Shown in pieces: positions 1 through 15,784 of a stretch of DNA of 32,000 nt. Each line of letters starts with the position of its first letter. Position 1 is the first letter of the stretch. The position numbers were made by a program, and so were the translations under genes. The notes beneath the pieces were generated by a model. The model saw nothing but the letters and a program-made list of their open reading frames with translations. It did no database searches and was not told the origin of the DNA. Origin of the DNA: Geobacter sulfurreducens PCA (GTDB taxonomy: Bacteria; Desulfobacterota; Desulfuromonadia; Geobacterales; Geobacteraceae); contig NC_002939.5 in the NCBI RefSeq assembly GCF_000007985.2, positions 3,480,001 through 3,512,000 of the forward strand, given 5' to 3'.

Positions 1-1091
1 AGGAGTATATCGGTGCCACCATCGACCACTATGCCAAAGGATTGAGGGACGAAGCGGGGCGCCCCCTGGAACGCCTCTGCACTCGGGTTATCCTCGTGAC
101 CCACTCCATGGGAGGGCTCGTGGCCCGGTCCGCCTGCGTGCTCCACGGTGCCGCAGAAAAAGTGCTCGGGGTCGTCCACGGCGTGCAGCCGGCCACCGGC
201 TCACCCGCCGCCTACTGGCGGATGAAAGCCGGGTTCGAACGCCCTGCCGGCGGACCCCGCAAGAGCATCTGGGATTGGTTTCTCAATCCCGTGAAGATGT
301 TCGAGCGGCGGGCCATGGGGTATGCCTCGGCCTGGATCCTCGGTACCGACGGTGAGGAGGTGACGGCGCTCTTGGGGAACATGCCGGGGGGGCTGCAACT
401 GCTGCCGAATAAGGATTACCGGGACAATAGCGGCAGCCGGCAGTGGCTCGCCTACCCAGGGGCCGACGGCCGTACCCTGAGCCTTCCCCGGAGCGACCCC
501 TACGAGGATATCTACCGCGTCCGAGACAACGTACCCTGGCGGATGGTGAACCCGGACTGGCTCGATCCAGGGAATCCAACTGGCAGCTCCAAGAGCTATC
601 GGAGCAAAACATCATGGGATCATTATGAGGAATATCTCCTTGAGGCCGAAGAATTCCACGACAACCTCGGCTCCCGGGTCCACGACGACACGGTCCAGTT
701 CTACTCCACCACCCTCGACTCACCGGACCGGATCGTTTACACCCGCGAACCCCACGTGCATTCTACGCCCCACCAGTTCAGGAATAAGGGGGCATTCCGG
801 GCCTATGTGGACAGTAACGACGAAATACGGGAAACCTTCGCAGGAGCAACGGCGGTGGTCGCCCTGGAACCCTTCTCCGGCACCGGCGACGGCACCGTCC
901 CCGATTCGTCGGGCAAGGCCCTGAAGGTTCCCACGGCACGGATCGGTCGGGATTCGCCCGCCGATTTCTTTTCCATCGACCATCAGGGAATCTATGGGAC
1001 GGATACAGCGAAGAAAATTGTCTTCACCACCGTCTGGAACCTGGCGATCAAGCGGATCGAGGAACAGGTGGGGGGGCCGGCCGGTGATTGA
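1..1091 (+). CDS. alpha/beta-hydrolase, lipase/esterase-like (5'-truncated by window edge); possible T6SS-associated lipase
   Basis: The frame is open from the window edge (codon phase from nt 3: EYIGATIDHYAKGL...), so the track start at 42 is an internal TTG. It has a GxSxG nucleophile elbow in VILVTHSMGGLVARS. Further on are GTGDGTVPDSSG (Asp candidate) and SIDHQGIYG (His candidate), giving a Ser-Asp-His triad order typical of PGAP1/lipase-like hydrolases. It lies 101 nt upstream of tssB on the same strand. Confidence 0.7.
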   Translation, partial: EYIGATIDHYAKGLRDEAGRPLERLCTRVILVTHSMGGLVARSACVLHGAAEKVLGVVHGVQPATGSPAAYWRMKAGFERPAGGPRKSIWDWFLNPVKMFERRAMGYASAWILGTDGEEVTALLGNMPGGLQLLPNKDYRDNSGSRQWLAYPGADGRTLSLPRSDPYEDIYRVRDNVPWRMVNPDWLDPGNPTGSSKSYRSKTSWDHYEEYLLEAEEFHDNLGSRVHDDTVQFYSTTLDSPDRIVYTREPHVHSTPHQFRNKGAFRAYVDSNDEIRETFAGATAVVALEPFSGTGDGTVPDSSGKALKVPTARIGRDSPADFFSIDHQGIYGTDTAKKIVFTTVWNLAIKRIEEQVGGPAGD

Positions 1092-7467: not shown

Positions 7468-7970
7468 GTGAGAAAAAAGGCTTCAGCTATTTCGTTTGGA
7501 ATTAACGGCACCCTGTCGGAAGGGTTTCGCGTCGGCCGCATCGTTTCCGCAACCGACAACAGGTTTATCGTCGATTACCCGGAGAACTCTCTGGGTCCCA
7601 TCGCCGCCCGGCTCACGACCTCGGTGAAAAACCGGCTTCTGGACACGGGCAACCCGGCAGAGGAAAAGAAATTCTCCTGGCATTTGAGAACAACGATCCC
7701 GGACAGCCGATCATTGTCGACACAATGTACTCACTACTTGATGAGATCGCCGATGCGACAGCGGCCGAAACTGCGAAGGCCGTTCCGAACGAAGTGATTG
7801 TCGACGGGACGCGGATCACGTTTGATGCTCGGGAAGAAATCGAGCTCAAATGCGGAAAAGCCAGTATCGTTCTCACCAGCGCCGGCAAGGTAATCATCAA
7901 GGGAGCCTACCTGCTCAGCCAGTCTTCTGGCGAAAACAGGATCAAAGGCGCGTCCGTTGGAATCAATTGA
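7468..7970 (+). pseudogene. DUF6484-like small protein split by a frameshift into two ORFs (7468..7797 and 7725..7970)
   Basis: The N-terminal part (GRIVSATDNRFIVDYPENSLGPIAARLTT...) reads in frame 1. The conserved continuation EILLAFENNDPGQPIIVDTMY...VIVDGTRITFDAREEIELKCGKASIVLTSAGKVIIKGAYLLSQSSGENRIKGASVGIN reads in frame 0. The switch must lie at or near the A-rich run gaggaaaagaaatt (7660-7673). Upstream of it, frame 0 gives only Arg-rich nonsense and has a stop at 7503. Confidence 0.6.
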
Positions 7971-7990: not shown

Positions 7991-9244
7991 ATGAATCCAA
8001 CAATATCATCCATATTACACCAACTTGCCGAGGAGGCAGCGTTTCTTTGGCATCTTCGAGGTGGCATCCTGCAATCTCCGCATTTTTCTCTGAGTGACCT
8101 CGAACGTTTCGATGAACGACTTGAAGCACAGGTCGATGGCTTGCGGGTGGGCGGCGACGCGTCCTGGGAGATATGCCGATCTGCGCTTCCGGGCGACACG
8201 GTCGAAGGACTCTTCGCCCCGGCGGTATTGGCCTTCGAAGGCGTCAACAGTGAGCACCTTCAGCAGGTCATGGACGCGATGGGGACGGATCGGGAGAAGG
8301 CCCGCGCCGTCATTTCCGCACTGGGGTGGCTTCCCTACGAACAGGCCAGGCCGCGCATAGAGCAATTACTGGCAGATGAATCGCCCTTTCATCGCTACAT
8401 CGGCATGGCGGCTTGCGCCATCCACCGGCACGATCCGGGCCCACAGCTGACAAGAGCCGTGAACGATACCTCCCCGTTATTGATGGCCCGCGGGCTCCGT
8501 GCATACGGGGAGTTGGGCAGAGGTTGCGAACTGAATGATTTCAGGCTGCAAGAATACTTGACGGACCACGACGACGAAATCCGTTTTGCCGCCGCATGGT
8601 CCGCGTCCCTTGCGGGCATTGGCACAGCCGTCGGCGTGCTGAGAAGTTTCGTCGCATCCTCATCCCGATATGCCGAGAAAGCCCTGAACGTTTCCGTGCG
8701 GTGCATGCGCCCCGAAAGCGCACGTGCCTGGCAACGGGAGCTCGCTCAATCGTCTGAAACGATCAGATTTGCTGCGATATGCGCGGGGGCTCTGGGCGAT
8801 CCGTCCCTTGTTCCGTGGCTCATCGACCGGATGGATACGCCGACGATCGCACGAGTGGCGGGTGAAGCGCTCACCATGATAACCGGCATCGATATCGAGC
8901 TCGAAGAACTGGCAGGCTCACGGCCCGAAGGCTTCAATGCCGGCCCCACCGATGATCCGAAGGATCTCAATGTGGCCATGGATGCCGATGAAAACCTCCC
9001 CTGGCCCGATGCCGACCGGGTTGCCGCATGGTGGGGCAAGAATAAAGGCCGCTTTCAAAGCGGAACCCGTTACTTTCTCGGGAAGCCGGTCTCGCCTGAA
9101 CATCTCCGGCTGGCTCTCAAAACGGGCCTTCAGCGTCAGCGTGCGGCTGCCGCCCTTGAGCTGGCGCGAATGAATCCTGGGCGACCGATGTTTGAAGTGC
9201 GGGCACCAGCGGCCAGACAGCGCAAAGAGGTTGCGGCCATATGA
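7991..9244 (+). CDS. TIGR02270-family / HEAT-repeat-like protein of unknown function (T6SS vgrG-linked)
   Basis: 417 aa from ATG 7991. The track start at 7850 overlaps the previous gene and encodes R/Q-rich junk. The N-terminus ILHQLAEEAAFLWHLR...FDERLEAQVDGLRV and the helical repeat character match my recollection of TIGR02270, a family noted in Myxococcus, Geobacter sulfurreducens and P. aeruginosa. Its stop overlaps the next start (ATGA at 9241-9244). Confidence 0.7.
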   Translation: MNPTISSILHQLAEEAAFLWHLRGGILQSPHFSLSDLERFDERLEAQVDGLRVGGDASWEICRSALPGDTVEGLFAPAVLAFEGVNSEHLQQVMDAMGTDREKARAVISALGWLPYEQARPRIEQLLADESPFHRYIGMAACAIHRHDPGPQLTRAVNDTSPLLMARGLRAYGELGRGCELNDFRLQEYLTDHDDEIRFAAAWSASLAGIGTAVGVLRSFVASSSRYAEKALNVSVRCMRPESARAWQRELAQSSETIRFAAICAGALGDPSLVPWLIDRMDTPTIARVAGEALTMITGIDIELEELAGSRPEGFNAGPTDDPKDLNVAMDADENLPWPDADRVAAWWGKNKGRFQSGTRYFLGKPVSPEHLRLALKTGLQRQRAAAALELARMNPGRPMFEVRAPAARQRKEVAAI

Positions 9245-10284
9245 GGACCCTGGCGATTACCGGGGCAAGCTGCGTTACTGCCGTAGGGCATGACGGCCCC
9301 TCGACGGCGGCTTCAGTCAGGGCGGGAATCTCCCGCTTTGCCGAGTACGACGACTATCGGGACGAAAACGACAACCCTATCACCGCGGCGCGAATCTGTG
9401 GGATTCATGACAGCTGGGATACCCCCCAGCGGATGGCCGGTGTCGCCGCTCTTTGCCTTGAAAAGCTCCTTGACGAGTATTTTCGTCGAGACGCACGTAG
9501 GCCTTCACAGATCCATCTCTTCCTTGGAGTAGCCTCCGACGAACGGCCCGGTCCGCGCTATGAAGAAAGCAGCCTGTTCCCGTTGCGCGGGATAATCGGG
9601 AAATGGACGGACAAACCCGGCCTTCAGGCTATCCGCCGGGGAAACGCATCCATGATGTGCTCCCTTGAACAGGCCGGTCGCCTGATCGACAGCAATCCCG
9701 ACGCGGTGTGCATCGTCGGCGGAGTTGATTCATTGCTAAGAACCTCGACCCTGAATTGGTTCGAAAAGGACTGCCGCCTCAAATCCGCAAGCTATGGCCG
9801 TCACCAGGGGCTCATTGCCGGAGAGGCGGTCGGGTTCATGGTCATTGGAGAACACGCAGGAGCAAAGCAGGCAGACAGGCCGATCCTCGGGAGTATTGCA
9901 GGGCTTGGGCTGGCAGTAGAACCAGCGCCGCGGGCATCGAGCGCCCTCGGACGAAACAGCGGGCTCACCGAGGCCTGCCATGCCGCCCTGAGCGGGGTGC
10001 AAAAAAAGGCGATCCGCGCGATATTCAGCGATCTCAATGGTGAAAACTCCCGAGCAAGGGAATGGGGCATGGCCGAAATGCGCTGTTTCGACAAACCGGA
10101 TGAAAGCAGGCGGCTCTGGACGCCGGCTAACTGCTACGGCGACATCGGCGCCGCCAGCGGCGTGGCCTTGGCAAGTATTGCCATGCAAGGGCTTGTTCGT
10201 GGATGGTTGCAATCGCCGATACTGGTAACCTGCTCCGATGACCATGGGCCATGCGGTGCCTTGGTATTGGAGAGCGAGAAATAG
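9241..10284 (+). CDS. beta-ketoacyl synthase-like (thiolase-fold) protein, probably catalytically degenerate
   Basis: 347 aa. It has a KS-like N-terminus (LAITGASCVTAVGHDGPSTAASVRAGISRF), a ...VCIVGGVDS segment and the C-terminal pattern TCSDDHGPCGALVLESEK. The canonical Cys/His/His motifs are altered (see findings). Confidence 0.8.
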   Translation: MRTLAITGASCVTAVGHDGPSTAASVRAGISRFAEYDDYRDENDNPITAARICGIHDSWDTPQRMAGVAALCLEKLLDEYFRRDARRPSQIHLFLGVASDERPGPRYEESSLFPLRGIIGKWTDKPGLQAIRRGNASMMCSLEQAGRLIDSNPDAVCIVGGVDSLLRTSTLNWFEKDCRLKSASYGRHQGLIAGEAVGFMVIGEHAGAKQADRPILGSIAGLGLAVEPAPRASSALGRNSGLTEACHAALSGVQKKAIRAIFSDLNGENSRAREWGMAEMRCFDKPDESRRLWTPANCYGDIGAASGVALASIAMQGLVRGWLQSPILVTCSDDHGPCGALVLESEK

Positions 10285-10303
10285 AATCCCCAAGGAGGCG
10301 ATC

Positions 10304-10684
10304 GTGGGAAAATCAACGGTTTTCGTTAACAAACAGGGAATGAGCAACAAAGGGAGTGGAGCTGTTGTCGTAAGCGGTCCGGATGTCTGTCTTACCCCGA
10401 TGGGCACTACAGTCGTACCGATACCCTATACCAACGTCGCCAGATCGGCCAGTCTCGCCGATGGCACAAAGACGGTGAAGATCGACGGCACCATGGGCGC
10501 AATCGATGGGTGCTGCTATAAAAAAAGCAGTGGTGATGAGTCTGGCAGTAAAAAAGGAGTTGGGTCGGGCACGATACAGGACAAGGCCGAGTTCATCAAC
10601 TACTCATTCGATGTCAAGATTGAGGGGAAAGGGGCATGCCGCAACTTCGACCCCATGACGCAGAACAATAAAAACGCCATGTAA
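10304..10684 (+). CDS. DUF4150 PAAR-like spike-cap protein without toxin extension
   Basis: AGGAGG RBS at 10293-10298, then GTG at 10304. The 126-aa product has VFVNKQGMSNKGSGAVVVSGPDVCLTP...PIPYTN...TVKIDG...SSGDE...KGVGSGT...NFDPMTQNNKNA, typical of DUF4150. The protein ends right after the PAAR-like domain. Confidence 0.85.
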   Translation: MGKSTVFVNKQGMSNKGSGAVVVSGPDVCLTPMGTTVVPIPYTNVARSASLADGTKTVKIDGTMGAIDGCCYKKSSGDESGSKKGVGSGTIQDKAEFINYSFDVKIEGKGACRNFDPMTQNNKNAM

Positions 10685-10735: not shown

Positions 10736-11113
10736 ATGGGAGTGAACAACGATTCCAATGCCGGGCCGTCGAGCGGCGAGCAGAAAGTTGTGCCCGATAA
10801 ACGGACCTTTCGCCTTAAGGTGGTCGAGTATCTTTCGTGGGACACATGCGATGAGAACAGCCGGACTTTCAAACTCGGTCACGAAGACAACAAACCCATC
10901 GGCGGCAGAGTATTCAAAATCAAGATGCCGGACGGCAGCATCGTTGAAAAGTCTACCGACGAAAAGGGAATAATTGAACTGACTGATCAGGACGCCAATG
11001 CAACGTTCGAAGTCATCTTCGAACCGGAAGAAGCCGCCCTTAACAACAAATACACCCTTTTCTACAACCGGACGGCTGTAGTGCAAACAAAACTCCCTGG
11101 GGACACCCCGTGA
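10736..11113 (+). CDS. hypothetical 125-aa protein, beta-sandwich-like; first gene of a three-gene coupled unit
   Basis: ATG at 10736. The segment GGRVFKIKMPDGSIVEKSTDEKGIIELTDQDANATFEVIF resembles carboxypeptidase-regulatory/prealbumin-like beta-sandwich repeats. Its stop overlaps the next start (GTGA at 11110-11113). I recognise no family. Confidence 0.5.
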   Translation: MGVNNDSNAGPSSGEQKVVPDKRTFRLKVVEYLSWDTCDENSRTFKLGHEDNKPIGGRVFKIKMPDGSIVEKSTDEKGIIELTDQDANATFEVIFEPEEAALNNKYTLFYNRTAVVQTKLPGDTP

Positions 11114-12993
11114 CAGACGCCAGCCACAAGCGAATCGAGGAAAACGATCCCAAGGGAAAGGTTCTCCAGCACGTCAAGCCCGACATGATGTGTGGCGAGA
11201 TCCACACTATCAGCATGTACCAGCCGACCGTCATTGTCGATTCCCACATGCACATTCAGAGCGGGCGCTGTGCCCCCCTGCAGTTCGTCAGGGACCAGGG
11301 GCCGGGCCCAGTGGCCATGCTGCAGACCGCGACTTCCGCCTCCCGGGGATGGATAGAGGGGAGCGGCCTCACCCTTGGCGCCATCTTTACGGCCTTGCTC
11401 GAGCCTGTCTGGGCTCCAGTGCGTGCCGTATCCCAGTTGTTCGACAATTCCCCCCACAATCCTGATGAAGGCATCCTGCAGGCCTCACCCTTAATTGATC
11501 TGGTAGCACAGCAGAAGAAAAAAACCATCGAGGTTGCCGAAGGCTTCATACTGGAGCGCGAGAAGGTTCTAACCAACTACCTCATGAAGGAAGCCCTTTA
11601 CAAGGATGCCCCCCACCTCATCTTCACCAGCGTAGTCATGACCATGGACATGGAGTACTGCCATATTGACGGCTACTTCGGTCTCAAGGTCTACAACCCC
11701 CTCTATACAAACCGAGAAGACATCGAAGCGAACAAGCCCTGCGCCTACTGGACGCCGCAGCATGGCGAGTGGGTAAAGGCCCCGCGCGACAATAGCGTCT
11801 ATGTAAGGCGGGACAAGCAGGCGAATACCTCGGAAAAGCACATGACGCCGGAGGAGTTTGATAGCTACCAGGAAGAGGCACGGATAGAAGGAATAACCGC
11901 CTCCTACCTGGATGACAAAGGCAATGCCAGAGAGGTGAAAATCGTCGCCGCGCCGGTGCTGCTGCCGGACGCGGAGACCGTTCTCTACGAGAACTGGATA
12001 AAGCAGCTGCAATACACCGAGCTTGCCGTCGTGAAATATCCTCTGAAGCTTCTCCCCATGTACCACTTCGATCCGCGCCGCTGGCATCTGGAGAAAAACG
12101 CCACCGAGGTGCTCGACAAGGTTGGAGACAGGGGTATCTACCTGGGGTTCAAGATGTACACCGCCCAGGGGTATCGTCCGTGGGATCCGCGGCTGCCGAT
12201 TCTGAAGGACTTCTACGCCAAATGCTGTCTGCGCGGCACCCCCATCGTGAACCACTGCACCCCGAAAGGGGCTGCCGCCTACGAACGAGATGAATACTTC
12301 GGTTTCGAACACCCCCTCGACGGGGAGAACGACCGGAAACAGAAGCAAGACAAAAGGTCGGCCTACTTCAGCAGGCACTTCGTCTCCCCCCAGGCCTGGA
12401 AGGAACTGCTGGACGGAGGCGCTGAACTGGTGGATGGACGGATGCACGTATCGTTTAAAAACCTGTACCTCTGCCTGGCCCACTTCGGCGGGCCTACCGA
12501 CCTGGGCATGGAATGGAACCGCCAGATTATTGAGATGATCGAAAGCGGGGAATACCCCAACCTCTACACCGACATCTCGTCATCATTCGCCGACAGCGGA
12601 TTTCGCAAGGATTTCAAAGCCATCATCCGGAAGCACCCAAAAATCAAAGACCGCATCCTGTTCGGCACCGACTGGTACATGACCTTCGTCTACAGCGCTC
12701 CCTTCGTGGGCAAGAATCTGTGGGACTACTGCACGGAAACCAAGAAGTTCCTGGATGACTTCGATACCAGCCTCTGGCCGGCCTTCACCCAGTATAACCC
12801 CTACCGCTTCTATCGGCTGGATCAGCAGATTGGACGGATTGCGGAGAACATCATTGAGATGCGGGCGAAAGATAAGAAGATTTTAGAAGTGCTCGATGAA
12901 CTCGAGGAGTATCAAATCAATGAAATTCGTAGAGAAGTTGCCTGGATCAAGTTTGCCAATCACGGCCATGTAATATTCAAGGAGACACCATGA
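11110..12993 (+). CDS. amidohydrolase_2 (ACMSD-type metal-dependent TIM-barrel hydrolase)-like protein with a large insertion; candidate T6SS cargo effector
   Basis: 627 aa. The ordered motif set is VIVDSHMHIQ (HxH, residues 44-48), GFKMYTAQG, PIVNHCTP, LCLAHFGG and ILFGTDWYM (Asp). About 300 residues separate HxH from GFKMY. There is no signal peptide. The start could instead be the internal ATGs (MMCGEIH...). Confidence 0.6.
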   Translation: MTDASHKRIEENDPKGKVLQHVKPDMMCGEIHTISMYQPTVIVDSHMHIQSGRCAPLQFVRDQGPGPVAMLQTATSASRGWIEGSGLTLGAIFTALLEPVWAPVRAVSQLFDNSPHNPDEGILQASPLIDLVAQQKKKTIEVAEGFILEREKVLTNYLMKEALYKDAPHLIFTSVVMTMDMEYCHIDGYFGLKVYNPLYTNREDIEANKPCAYWTPQHGEWVKAPRDNSVYVRRDKQANTSEKHMTPEEFDSYQEEARIEGITASYLDDKGNAREVKIVAAPVLLPDAETVLYENWIKQLQYTELAVVKYPLKLLPMYHFDPRRWHLEKNATEVLDKVGDRGIYLGFKMYTAQGYRPWDPRLPILKDFYAKCCLRGTPIVNHCTPKGAAAYERDEYFGFEHPLDGENDRKQKQDKRSAYFSRHFVSPQAWKELLDGGAELVDGRMHVSFKNLYLCLAHFGGPTDLGMEWNRQIIEMIESGEYPNLYTDISSSFADSGFRKDFKAIIRKHPKIKDRILFGTDWYMTFVYSAPFVGKNLWDYCTETKKFLDDFDTSLWPAFTQYNPYRFYRLDQQIGRIAENIIEMRAKDKKILEVLDELEEYQINEIRREVAWIKFANHGHVIFKETP

Positions 12994-14454: not shown

Positions 14455-15462
14455 ATGGACCTCCTCAACTCCACCCCCTTCGCCGCCACCCCGCTCTTTC
14501 TCTCCGACCGCCACGGCGCCGAAACGCTCCTCGTCATCGTCAAGGGAACGTGGCGGATCAATCGGGACGGAACCCTCTCCGTGGCGGAAGAGCAGGTGCC
14601 AATCCGCTTCGAGCCTCTCTACTCCGGCGATCCCGCCTCATCGAGTCTCATCCACGACACCGACATCATACTGGAAAAGCCGGGGACCGACTGCATCCTC
14701 CTCGGCCACGCCTGGGCGCCAAAGGTGGGAGTCGAGTCGGTGGATGTGACCTTCGCCGTGGGGCCGGTGCGAAAGGCGGTGCGGGTCTTCGGCGAACGGA
14801 TCTGGATGAAGTGCCTGGGAATGGTGTCGATGTCGAGAGCTGCTCCGTTCGAGAAGATTCCCCTCGTCTGGGAGCGGGCCTTCGGGGGGGCGGATACGAG
14901 CTGGCCCGACCCGAAAAACCATGAATTCTGCCTCGAAAATCCGGTGGGTAGGGGCATTCTGGCGAAAAGAACGAAACAGGAGATCGACGGTCTTCGCCTT
15001 CCCAACCTGGAAGACCCGACACATCCCATAAGAAAGACCGACGACCATCCCCGGCCCATGGGGTTCGGGCCGATTCCGCCCCACTGGCAGCCTCGGGCGA
15101 AGTACGCCGGCACCTATGACGATCACTGGCGAAAGTACGTGAACCCCCTCCTGCCGGAGGATATGGATTCGCGCTTCCACTCGTCCGCACCACCGGGCCT
15201 CATGTCAAACCGTCACCTGTCGGGCACGGAACAGGTGCTTGTCGCAAACGCCTCGCGCAACGGCAGGCTGGAATTTACCCTGCCCGGCATCGCACCCCGC
15301 GTCTCGGTGGCGATCGGAGCGACGGTCCATGAACTGAAGATGCAGCTCGATACGCTCATCGTCGAACCGGACGAGGAGCGCCTTGTCCTTGTGTGGCGCG
15401 GAAACCACAATGTTCATGGGAAGCTTCACAGCCTGAAGAGGGTATGTATCGAGGCGAGATGA
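14455..15462 (+). CDS. DUF2169-family T6SS adaptor/chaperone protein
   Basis: 335 aa. The N-terminus LLNSTPFAATPLFLSDRHGAETLLVIVKGTWRI, together with PLVWERAFGG, NPVGRG, LPNLEDP, GFGPIPPHWQPR and LDTLIVEPDEERLVLVWRG, matches DUF2169 architecture as I know it. Confidence 0.85.
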   Translation: MDLLNSTPFAATPLFLSDRHGAETLLVIVKGTWRINRDGTLSVAEEQVPIRFEPLYSGDPASSSLIHDTDIILEKPGTDCILLGHAWAPKVGVESVDVTFAVGPVRKAVRVFGERIWMKCLGMVSMSRAAPFEKIPLVWERAFGGADTSWPDPKNHEFCLENPVGRGILAKRTKQEIDGLRLPNLEDPTHPIRKTDDHPRPMGFGPIPPHWQPRAKYAGTYDDHWRKYVNPLLPEDMDSRFHSSAPPGLMSNRHLSGTEQVLVANASRNGRLEFTLPGIAPRVSVAIGATVHELKMQLDTLIVEPDEERLVLVWRGNHNVHGKLHSLKRVCIEAR

Positions 15463-15533
15463 AAGGTCCCCGCTGACTGGCTGCGAGCGCGTGCAGAGGG
15501 AAAATTCCGGCAAACGGCACGGCTGCGCCGCCA

Positions 15534-15561
15534 TTGACAGCGGTTGTTCCACTGCTACAAT
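15534..15561 (+). promoter_or_regulatory. sigma70-type promoter for the ferredoxin-rubredoxin unit
   Basis: TTGACA (15534-15539), a 16-nt spacer, then TACAAT (15556-15561), about 32 nt upstream of the ferredoxin ATG. Confidence 0.5.
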
Positions 15562-15592
15562 GGACTCCATTCGACACACAAGGAGGCTTCAC

Positions 15593-15784
15593 ATGGCACG
15601 AATACCGACGGTTGATCAGGATTCATGCATCAGCTGCGGGCTCTGCGTATCGACCTGTCCGGGAGTGTTCCGGTTCAACGAGGACGGCAAGTCGGAGGTG
15701 TATGATCCCAACGGGGCCAGCGAGCAGGAAATTCAGCAGGCCATCGACGGGTGCCCGGTTCAGTGCATCAGTTGGAAAGGATAG
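15593..15784 (+). CDS. small monocluster [4Fe-4S]/[3Fe-4S] ferredoxin
   Basis: AGGAGG at 15581-15586. The 63-aa product is MARIPTVDQDSCISCGLCVSTCP...GCPVQCISW (CxxCxxC...CP motif). The upstream part of track ORF 15491.. is non-coding-like. Confidence 0.85.
   Translation: MARIPTVDQDSCISCGLCVSTCPGVFRFNEDGKSEVYDPNGASEQEIQQAIDGCPVQCISWKG

Follow-up and report, generated by a model that had tools for sequence, protein, structure and literature searches.

The window analysed here is the whole 32,000-nucleotide stretch of Geobacter sulfurreducens PCA DNA at positions 3,480,001 to 3,512,000 of contig NC_002939.5 (assembly GCF_000007985.2, forward strand), and all coordinates below count from its first letter. 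It carries a type VI secretion system (T6SS) gene module in which a PGAP1-like lipase fragment is followed by TssB, TssC, Hcp, a LysM protein, the spike protein VgrG, a TvpC-like DUF6484 protein, a TIGR02270-family HEAT-repeat protein, a ketosynthase-like (KS-like) protein, a DUF4150 PAAR-like protein, a gene product of 125 amino acids (aa), a 627-aa Amidohydro_2-like protein, a 407-aa protein, and a DUF2169 protein (Table 1). The module layout is identical in the nearest relatives. The subject of the analysis is the KS-like protein, which is a catalytically dead descendant of a beta-ketoacyl-acyl carrier protein (ACP) synthase (KAS) of the I/II type and a member of the PRK06147, or TvpD, family.

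The ATG of the KS-like gene overlaps the stop codon of the upstream HEAT gene (ATGA) and is preceded by the Shine-Dalgarno sequence AAGAGG; judged from this arrangement, the gene is translationally coupled to the HEAT gene. Its product is 94% identical to that of the nearest relative, a "MULTISPECIES [Geobacter]" entry, and the comparison gave a dN/dS of 0.27, similar to the values for the neighbouring genes (0.13-0.26). The open reading frame (ORF) is real, intact, and under purifying selection. An antisense ORF of 223 aa (9736-10407) was rejected because it lies wholly within a conserved coding region of GC-rich DNA.

Fold and placement of the catalytic positions

The name given to the KS-like protein by NCBI and JGI is 3-oxoacyl-ACP synthase. 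Searches with family models assigned it to NCBIfam NF004798 (PRK06147) with 386.9 bits against a cut-off of 342, residues 1-346 matching profile positions 3-344 of 349. Pfam PF00109 scored 22.6 bits (threshold 20.8) over residues 2-51 only, PF02801 gave no match in the protein, the fabF model TIGR03150 gave 15.5 bits against its cut-off of 493.75, and a weak NCBIfam match was found to the cispentacin subunit AmcF. A single-sequence phmmer search of PDB sequences reached FabF only at an E-value of about 0.6, which is too weak for residue placement, and sequence alone is thus weak evidence for a ketosynthase relationship. An AlphaFold2 (AF2) model was compared with known structures. It was built from a 40-sequence family alignment and has a mean predicted local distance difference test (pLDDT) score of 94.8 and a predicted template-modelling score (pTM) of 0.94. 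The top 50 matches of the model in a Foldseek search of the PDB were all FabF, FabB, or KS/chain-length factor (CLF) chains, with E-values down to 8e-21, query-normalised template-modelling (TM) scores of 0.71-0.82, and about 15% identity. FabF and FabB matches specifically had TM scores of 0.78-0.82 at E-values of about 1e-20, and the fold is of the thiolase type (alpha-beta-alpha-beta-alpha). Fold-determining residues of FabF are retained as well, namely G17, G228, G232, G339, and G402, together with E191 (as Asp163), E233 (as Glu195), and D265 (as Glu227).

A profile search of 1.84 billion cluster representatives found 2,531 clusters (50% identity) at E <= 1e-30. The family statistics given below cover 263 listed sequences: the window protein, its 120 closest homologues listed, and 142 further ones listed in the cluster search; 143 of the 263 were listed there.

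Catalytic positions were placed by profile-profile alignment. The KAS I/II reference set of 11 sequences consisted of E. coli FabF and ten diverse plasmid-borne genes found by tblastn over plasmids (from Bacillus, Rhizobium, Streptomyces, Rhodococcus, a haloarchaeon, Ralstonia, Rhodobacter, and Lachnospira), as a database search with E. coli FabF gave only sequences at least 88% identical to it, which were unsuited to a diverse KAS profile. Cys163, His303, Lys335, His340, and Phe400 (FabF numbering) are present in all 11. The KS-like family alignment was matched to this set by hhalign with a probability of 99.8% and an E-value of 1.6e-26 over 344 columns. One global and three local runs gave the same mapping, in which N135 corresponds to FabF C163, D264 to H303, A296 to K335, and D301 to H340. 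HMMER alignments were not relied on because the Cys register obtained with the family hidden Markov model against E. coli FabF alone differed from that in alignments to other FabF chains; the family profile aligned to chains 3o04 and 9s5h_B agrees with hhalign on the Cys position, and the alignment to 9s5h_B agrees also on both His positions. A gapless reading of helix 134-151 (DSSP assignment of the model) against FabF 163-180 places Asn135 on Cys163, the nucleophile at the N-terminus of helix N-alpha-3, 25 residues before a shared G-G.

Most of what the first-pass annotation had proposed, from an alignment by eye, held in these comparisons. The ketosynthase fold was borne out by the model, by Foldseek, and by hhalign, and the segments it had named as fold markers (ITG..CVTAVG, IVGGVDS, and GPCGALVLE) all align with their FabF counterparts. 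The profile alignment to the KAS sequences leaves no Cys, His, and His at the catalytic positions, as had been suspected: the nucleophile position has Asn, and the second His is replaced by Asp. The nearest Cys is indeed offset, being C140; the nearest relative has Tyr in its place, and the family as a whole does not conserve it. For the first His the loss stood and the register did not; the motif NAHGTST had been set against DLNGENS so that His fell on Asn (N266), whereas profile methods pair H303 with D264, and the end of a model strand (E260-263) taken as anchor would pair it with S263. The choice among these three is immaterial to the loss of the triad because columns 261-268 are without His in all 263 family sequences.

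The gating and oxyanion loop of FabF around Phe400 (G-F-G-G) is not kept, and hhalign leaves FabF 386-401 without a counterpart. About 67 FabF residues in total have no equivalent in the KS-like protein, including 112-123, 131-135, 210-218, and 374-401 (precursor numbering). The deleted segments help in FabF to form the acyl pocket and the loops that cover the active site. No canonical KAS or ACP is encoded within 8 kb of the KS-like gene in 58 related loci or in the window, and neither the window nor the related loci contain ACP, malonyl-transferase, or reductase genes. With the acyl-pocket and gating segments largely deleted and no ACP or active ketosynthase nearby, an acyl-ACP ligand is argued against. 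The KS-like protein thus resembles FabF and FabB in its thiolase fold and in several fold-determining Gly, Asp, and Glu positions, and differs from them in the replacement of all catalytic residues, in its shorter chain and low identity, and in having no fatty-acid synthesis genes nearby.

Chain-length factors, or KS-beta subunits, are ketosynthase paralogues that lack the nucleophile, carry Gln at the Cys position, and serve as non-catalytic partners of an active KS-alpha encoded alongside within a polyketide cluster. Two CLF chains (6kxd_B and 6kxe_B, 19% identity) are among the structural matches of the KS-like model. The KS-like family differs in having Asn or His at the Cys position (Gln in 4/263), and no active KS or ACP is encoded nearby in any locus. 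The candidate role of a CLF-type partner of an active KS was accordingly rejected for the 58 loci and the window.

Family-wide loss and conserved replacements

No member of the family sample has Cys at column 135, which corresponds to Cys163; Asn occurs there in 146 sequences, His in 109, Gln in 4, Ser in 2, and Ala in 2. Column 264 (His303) has Asp in 260 of the 263, the others being two gaps and one Thr. Ala occupies column 296 (Lys335) in 236 sequences and Lys in none, and no Lys was found at columns 295, 296, 299, or 300 in any of the 263. At column 301 (His340) Asp occurs in 232 sequences and His in one. Phe is almost absent from columns 331-340, where an S-D-D-x-G motif is conserved instead of the FabF loop. 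The loss of the triad extends to related loci of Pseudomonas, Myxococcota, Planctomycetota, Kangiellaceae, Teredinibacter, Hahella, and other groups, at which the Cys position is even more varied (N, H, Q, R, or other residues). Pseudomonas loci with the gene order of P. aeruginosa PAO1 have lost Cys, His, and His as the window protein has, so that comparison with PA0098-type orthologues did not reveal a retained canonical triad. Judged from these alignments, the KS-like protein is without the canonical Claisen condensation machinery (Cys, both His, Lys, and the Phe loop being replaced), and this holds family-wide.

That the protein is nevertheless a genuine, very divergent ketosynthase with another nucleophile, for example Cys140 or Cys157, would fit its database name and the PF00109 score just above threshold. 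Against it stand the absence of an elbow Cys from all 263 sequences, the absence of His from both His positions in all but one sequence (at column 301), and the lack of any equivalent of Lys335, as well as the missing PF02801 match, the fabF model score far below its cut-off, and the absence of the accessory genes of fatty-acid synthesis named above. Cys140 was rejected as an alternative nucleophile on account of its lack of conservation, and a working ketosynthase is extremely unlikely here.

The best-conserved parts of the family are [C/G/S]-D-L-N-G-E-x-x-R-x-x-E-W and P-A-x-C-x-G-D-x-G-A-A. Within the 143 sequences that the search of cluster representatives listed, conservation reaches 98% for D264, 97% for G267, 97% for R271, 95% for E274, 93% for E268, and 99% for G300. 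Two sub-types can be told apart by column 135. The H-type is the larger branch of the family, and His is present at that column in 71% of the same 143 sequences. In the H-type (109/263), His135 is accompanied by Cys263 in 77 sequences and by Cys237 in 65; examples among the related loci are Pseudomonas sp. SMN5 and several metagenome-assembled genomes. In the N-type (146/263), which includes the window protein, columns 263 and 237 are mostly Gly or Ser. The window protein has N135, G237, S263, and C298 at the sub-type columns 135, 237, 263, and 298, and thus Asn where H-type relatives have His at the former nucleophile position.

This conservation raises the alternative of a rewired functional site, in which D264, N266, E268, R271, E274, D301, and D333/D334 together with R102 would bind or catalyse. 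A cation, a cofactor, or a segment of a client peptide are candidates for what is bound, and the accessory function would then depend on the site, so that this alternative overlaps with the scaffold reading given below. The replacement columns are the most conserved of the family in the 143 sequences and are located where the KAS active site lies, and the former glycine-rich oxyanion loop is now an acidic S-D-D-x-G loop. On the other side, the nucleophile position itself varies freely (N, H, Q, R, and others), a buried salt-bridge network stabilising the shortened fold would give equal conservation, and no ligand-related gene is conserved nearby. A rewired site is the main alternative to the scaffold but is considered unlikely. 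A slightly smaller chance is given to the fuller proposal that the KAS active site has been rebuilt as a conserved site (D264, N266, E268, R271, E274, D301, the S-D-D loop, and R102) for putative binding of a cation, a cofactor, or the PAAR client, with the His135/Cys arrangement of the H-type as a zinc site or swapped centre. Read from covariation in the alignment, His135 could bind zinc together with Cys263, the neighbour of the former His position, and Cys237, or these residues could make up a catalytic Cys-His(-Asp) centre with swapped positions.

Neighbouring genes and related loci

The features of the window that bear on the analysis are collected in Table 1.

Table 1. Coordinates of the KS-like gene, its former catalytic codons, and the neighbouring genes
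Feature	Position	Strand	Basis and remarks
PGAP1-like alpha/beta-hydrolase ORF	42-1091	+	Just upstream of tssB; Pfam match from profile position 89 of 233
VgrG spike protein, 697 aa	5343..7436	+	Pfam Phage_GPD 2e-95, Phage_base_V, Gp5_trimer_C
DUF6484/TvpC-like gene, OB-fold and short beta-prism, split	7468..7970	+	Pfam DUF6484 on first half 21.7 bits, below cut-off 27.6
TIGR02270-family HEAT-repeat protein, 417 aa	7991..9244	+	NCBIfam TIGR02270 646 bits, Pfam HEAT_2; start from 417-aa orthologue in locus L073
Ketosynthase-fold protein without catalytic residues, PRK06147/thiolase-like/TvpD family	9241..10284	+	347 aa, ATG start; NCBIfam, AF2, Foldseek, hhalign
Asn135 codon, at FabF Cys163 nucleophile position	9643..9645	+	hhalign global and local modes, codon checked
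Asp264 codon, at FabF His303 position; first residue of near-invariant D-L-N-G-E-x-x-R-x-x-E motif	10030..10032	+	
Ala296 codon, at FabF Lys335 position	10126..10128	+	
Asp301 codon, at FabF His340 position	10141..10143	+	
S-D-D-H-G loop replacing FabF F-G-F-G-G gating/oxyanion loop	10234..10248	+	C-terminal hairpin aligns with FabF
PAAR-like DUF4150 protein, 126 aa, GTG start, without toxin domain	10304..10684	+	Pfam Tox-PAAR-like 4.9e-38; start from 126-aa orthologues
125-aa protein without assigned family	10736..11113	+	Fused in relatives to PAAR-like or amidohydrolase-like protein
627-aa protein, Amidohydro_2-like C-terminal part	11110..12993	+	Pfam Amidohydro_2 4.3e-10; conserved downstream of PAAR-like gene in Geobacter-type loci
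407-aa protein, signal-peptide-like N-terminal segment	12990..14213	+	Follows amidohydrolase-like gene in relatives, sometimes in several copies
DUF2169 protein, TvpA-type PAAR chaperone	14455..15462	+	Pfam DUF2169 4.1e-107; position same in nearest relatives
Small 4Fe-4S ferredoxin-like ORF	15491-15784	+	Directly after DUF2169 gene; rubredoxin-like gene also follows in nearest relatives

Related loci were counted where at least 3 kb were available on both sides of the KS-like gene (43 loci), and partners were found by jackhmmer seeded with the window proteins, so that the counts are lower bounds: PAAR-like genes were present in 39, DUF2169 in 31, TIGR02270/HEAT in 31, TvpC-like genes in 27, and VgrG in 26. 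The KS-like gene always keeps company with VgrG or PAAR-like chaperone genes and never with genes for lipids or polyketides. The KS-like gene lies between the HEAT and PAAR-like genes in Geobacter-type loci and between the DUF2169 and PAAR-like genes in most others. In the window the DUF2169 gene comes last in the module, some 4 kb beyond the KS-like gene, whereas in most other lineages it is directly upstream of it; the HEAT gene of Geobacter-type loci holds the upstream slot that DUF2169 has elsewhere. The PAAR-like gene begins 19 nt after the KS-like gene and has its own AAGGAGG 7 nt upstream of the GTG. Two KS-like copies occur within one 17-kb stretch in L018 (7998-9044 and 14395-15450) and in L043 (582-1682 and 7968-9083), each copy being associated with its own accessory or effector genes.

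Fusion polypeptides of TIGR02270 and PRK06147 were found in both orders, with the HEAT part first in P0241, P0242, P0097, and loci L023, L026, and L028, and with the KS-like part first in P0277, P0281, and P0301. Such fusions are classical evidence that two proteins act as one unit, and together with the ATGA overlap they point to a direct partnership of the HEAT protein and TvpD.

The TvpC-like gene is interrupted in the window. Its halves are in different frames, and the DNA alignment shows a 2-bp insertion near 7660-7661 (GCAGAGGAAAAG in the window versus GC--AGGGAAAG); the two nearest relatives have an unbroken DUF6484 ORF of 166 aa. In Serratia marcescens, TvpC is indispensable to its own VgrG pathway (PMC13373197), and the spike module may be inactive in the window strain if the insertion is true and not a sequencing error. 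The frameshift also gives some ground for regarding the KS-like gene as a decaying, functionless evolutionary relic of such a module. That reading is extremely unlikely in view of the intact ORF and its dN/dS, the 2,531 clusters that match the family profile, and the motifs and synteny that are strongly conserved between phyla.

The 125-aa protein (10736..11113), encoded after the PAAR-like gene, matched no Pfam or NCBIfam model. Fusions join it to the PAAR-like protein in L014, L019, L023, L026, and L029 and to the amidohydrolase-like protein in L018, L022, and L027, and the PAAR-like, 125-aa, and 627-aa proteins together look like a split "specialised PAAR effector". The 627-aa protein is a candidate effector and the 407-aa protein a candidate immunity protein, the signal-peptide-like N-terminus of the latter and its multiplication in some relatives being as expected of an immunity gene. 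At the other end of the module, the N-terminal part of the PGAP1-like ORF may extend past the window start, and the ORF is probably the counterpart of GSU3171, which a Geobacter study lists as a lipase-type effector (PMC10580878).

Probable role in spike assembly

The first-pass annotation had regarded a thiolase-fold protein in a T6SS spike module as unexpected, a judgement that did not survive comparison with the literature, where the family matched at 386.9 bits is already reported beside VgrG, DUF6484, DUF2169, and DUF4150. PRK06147 was proposed in 2020 as a fourth class of T6SS adaptor from genomic context, with 407 homologues of which 74% adjoin DUF2169 (PMC7714669). In 2025 it was listed as the "thiolase-like" gene in synteny type A of DUF2169 (PMC11883445), and in 2026 it received the name TvpD, as "an additional predicted PAAR chaperone" in Tvp systems of Class II (PMC13373197). 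Members are P. aeruginosa PA0098, V. parahaemolyticus VP1399, and presumably P. mirabilis PefC, and the window protein shares with them its length class and the neighbours VgrG, DUF6484, DUF2169, DUF4150 PAAR-like, and HEAT protein. The gene set of a Class II Tvp or synteny type A module (VgrG, DUF6484 TvpC-like, DUF2169 TvpA, and DUF4150 PAAR-like) is present in the window, with its DUF6484 member frameshifted, and recurs in related loci.

In PAO1 the cluster order is VgrG1b, OB-fold, DUF2169, thiolase-like, PAAR-toxin, immunity, and HEAT (PMC7970981). The window differs in that the HEAT gene is directly upstream of the KS-like gene and DUF2169 closes the module, and in that the PAAR-like protein is short and the candidate toxin a separate gene; the Geobacter-type module is a rearranged Class II or synteny type A layout. 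The KS-like protein is an ordinary member of a described and named family, and the observation from which the analysis started is correct but largely known.

The TvpD name is based on published AlphaFold models in which the PAAR domain of Tse7 is surrounded by a groove made up of PA0097 and PA0098 (PMC13373197); the HEAT protein (PA0101 type) is not part of the published Tvp complex models. T6SS killing by P. mirabilis needs the whole pef operon, the toxin-immunity pair alone being insufficient (PMC5714391), while the need for the P. aeruginosa thiolase-like gene in effector delivery is stated as unexamined (PMC11883445). The terms "catalytic" and "active site" are not mentioned for the family in PMC7714669, PMC11883445, PMC13373197, PMC7970981, or PMC5714391. 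Residue-level proof of catalytic death in the family was not found in the searchable literature, outside of which lies the PNAS paper on the VgrG1b cluster (Pissaridou 2018); that paper may already comment on the catalytic residues of PA0098. Nor were the identity of the replacement residues with the most conserved positions of the family, the H-type/N-type covariation (H135 with C263 and C237), or HEAT fusions of PRK06147 proteins found in the searchable literature. These residue-level, covariation, and fusion leads are useful and unsurprising to a T6SS specialist.

The best explanation, in keeping with the pseudo-enzyme or scaffold role that had been suggested among other options, is that the KS-like protein probably serves as a non-enzymatic scaffold which, with the HEAT and DUF2169 proteins, positions the PAAR-like protein on the TvpC-like mimic and then on VgrG. 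The KS-like protein, the TIGR02270 HEAT protein, and the DUF2169 TvpA chaperone would hold or shield the DUF4150 PAAR-like protein, the presumed client of the accessory proteins. As proposed for P. aeruginosa, the TvpC-like mimic of VgrG would receive the PAAR-like protein before VgrG itself does, and the outcome would be the assembly of a loaded spike tip. The physical contacts and the chaperone role are suggested by the published AlphaFold models of the P. aeruginosa orthologues and by synteny. Several points weigh against this explanation. No experiment on any member of the PRK06147 family shows binding to PAAR, DUF2169, or HEAT proteins. The complex in the literature was predicted for P. 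aeruginosa, which has another gene order (DUF2169, not HEAT, upstream) and a PAAR protein with a toxin domain. Finally, the replacement residues are among the most conserved columns of the family, which a pure scaffold would not obviously need and which leaves room for a functional site.

A precedent for such a recruitment is TsmK (AsaB), the "pseudo-ketoacyl synthase" of the Acinetobacter T6SS membrane complex, which acts in the assembly of that complex and is a ketosynthase-like fold without catalytic residues used as a structural T6SS accessory (PMC10564176). Compared by description, TsmK differs in being Acinetobacter-specific and membrane-associated, in stabilising TssM/TssL, and in resembling a KS domain only in part (10% identity to 4TKT) (PMC10564176), and its gene belongs to the core T6SS cluster of a system that lacks TssJ, whereas the KS-like gene is in a VgrG-PAAR module. 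The precedent appears to be an unrelated one.

A Geobacter transcriptome study lists GSU3181, GSU3168, and Gmet_0287 as effectors under the description "tse, fatty acid metabolism protein" (PMC10580878, Table 1) and reports GSU3181 as 51-fold up in co-culture by direct interspecies electron transfer (PMC10580878). As each of the three adjoins a PAAR-like DUF4150 gene, a secreted effector with a lipid or fatty-acid target has to be weighed against the scaffold. The label for the Geobacter orthologues appears to follow the database name only, so that the effector assignment rests on annotation, and the protein lacks the catalytic residues. There is no immunity-like partner for the KS-like gene, which is flanked by HEAT or DUF2169 and PAAR-like genes and in some genomes fused to the HEAT protein, and a separate candidate effector/immunity pair is found downstream. 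A secreted effector is consequently very unlikely.

Public databases call the KS-like protein and thousands of its relatives "3-oxoacyl-ACP synthase", and by the residue evidence they cannot be ketosynthases. The replacement residues, as the most conserved positions of the family, are obvious targets for mutagenesis, and the HEAT protein (PA0101 type) is pointed to as a direct TvpD partner by the fusions in both orders. If the proposal of a rebuilt site were true, TvpD proteins would be factors of spike assembly that depend on a ligand or even act as enzymes, and not inert scaffolds, and the Geobacter N-type would be a further-degenerated form. The relatives of the KS-like protein are better read as accessory proteins of T6SS spike assembly than as effectors of fatty-acid metabolism.

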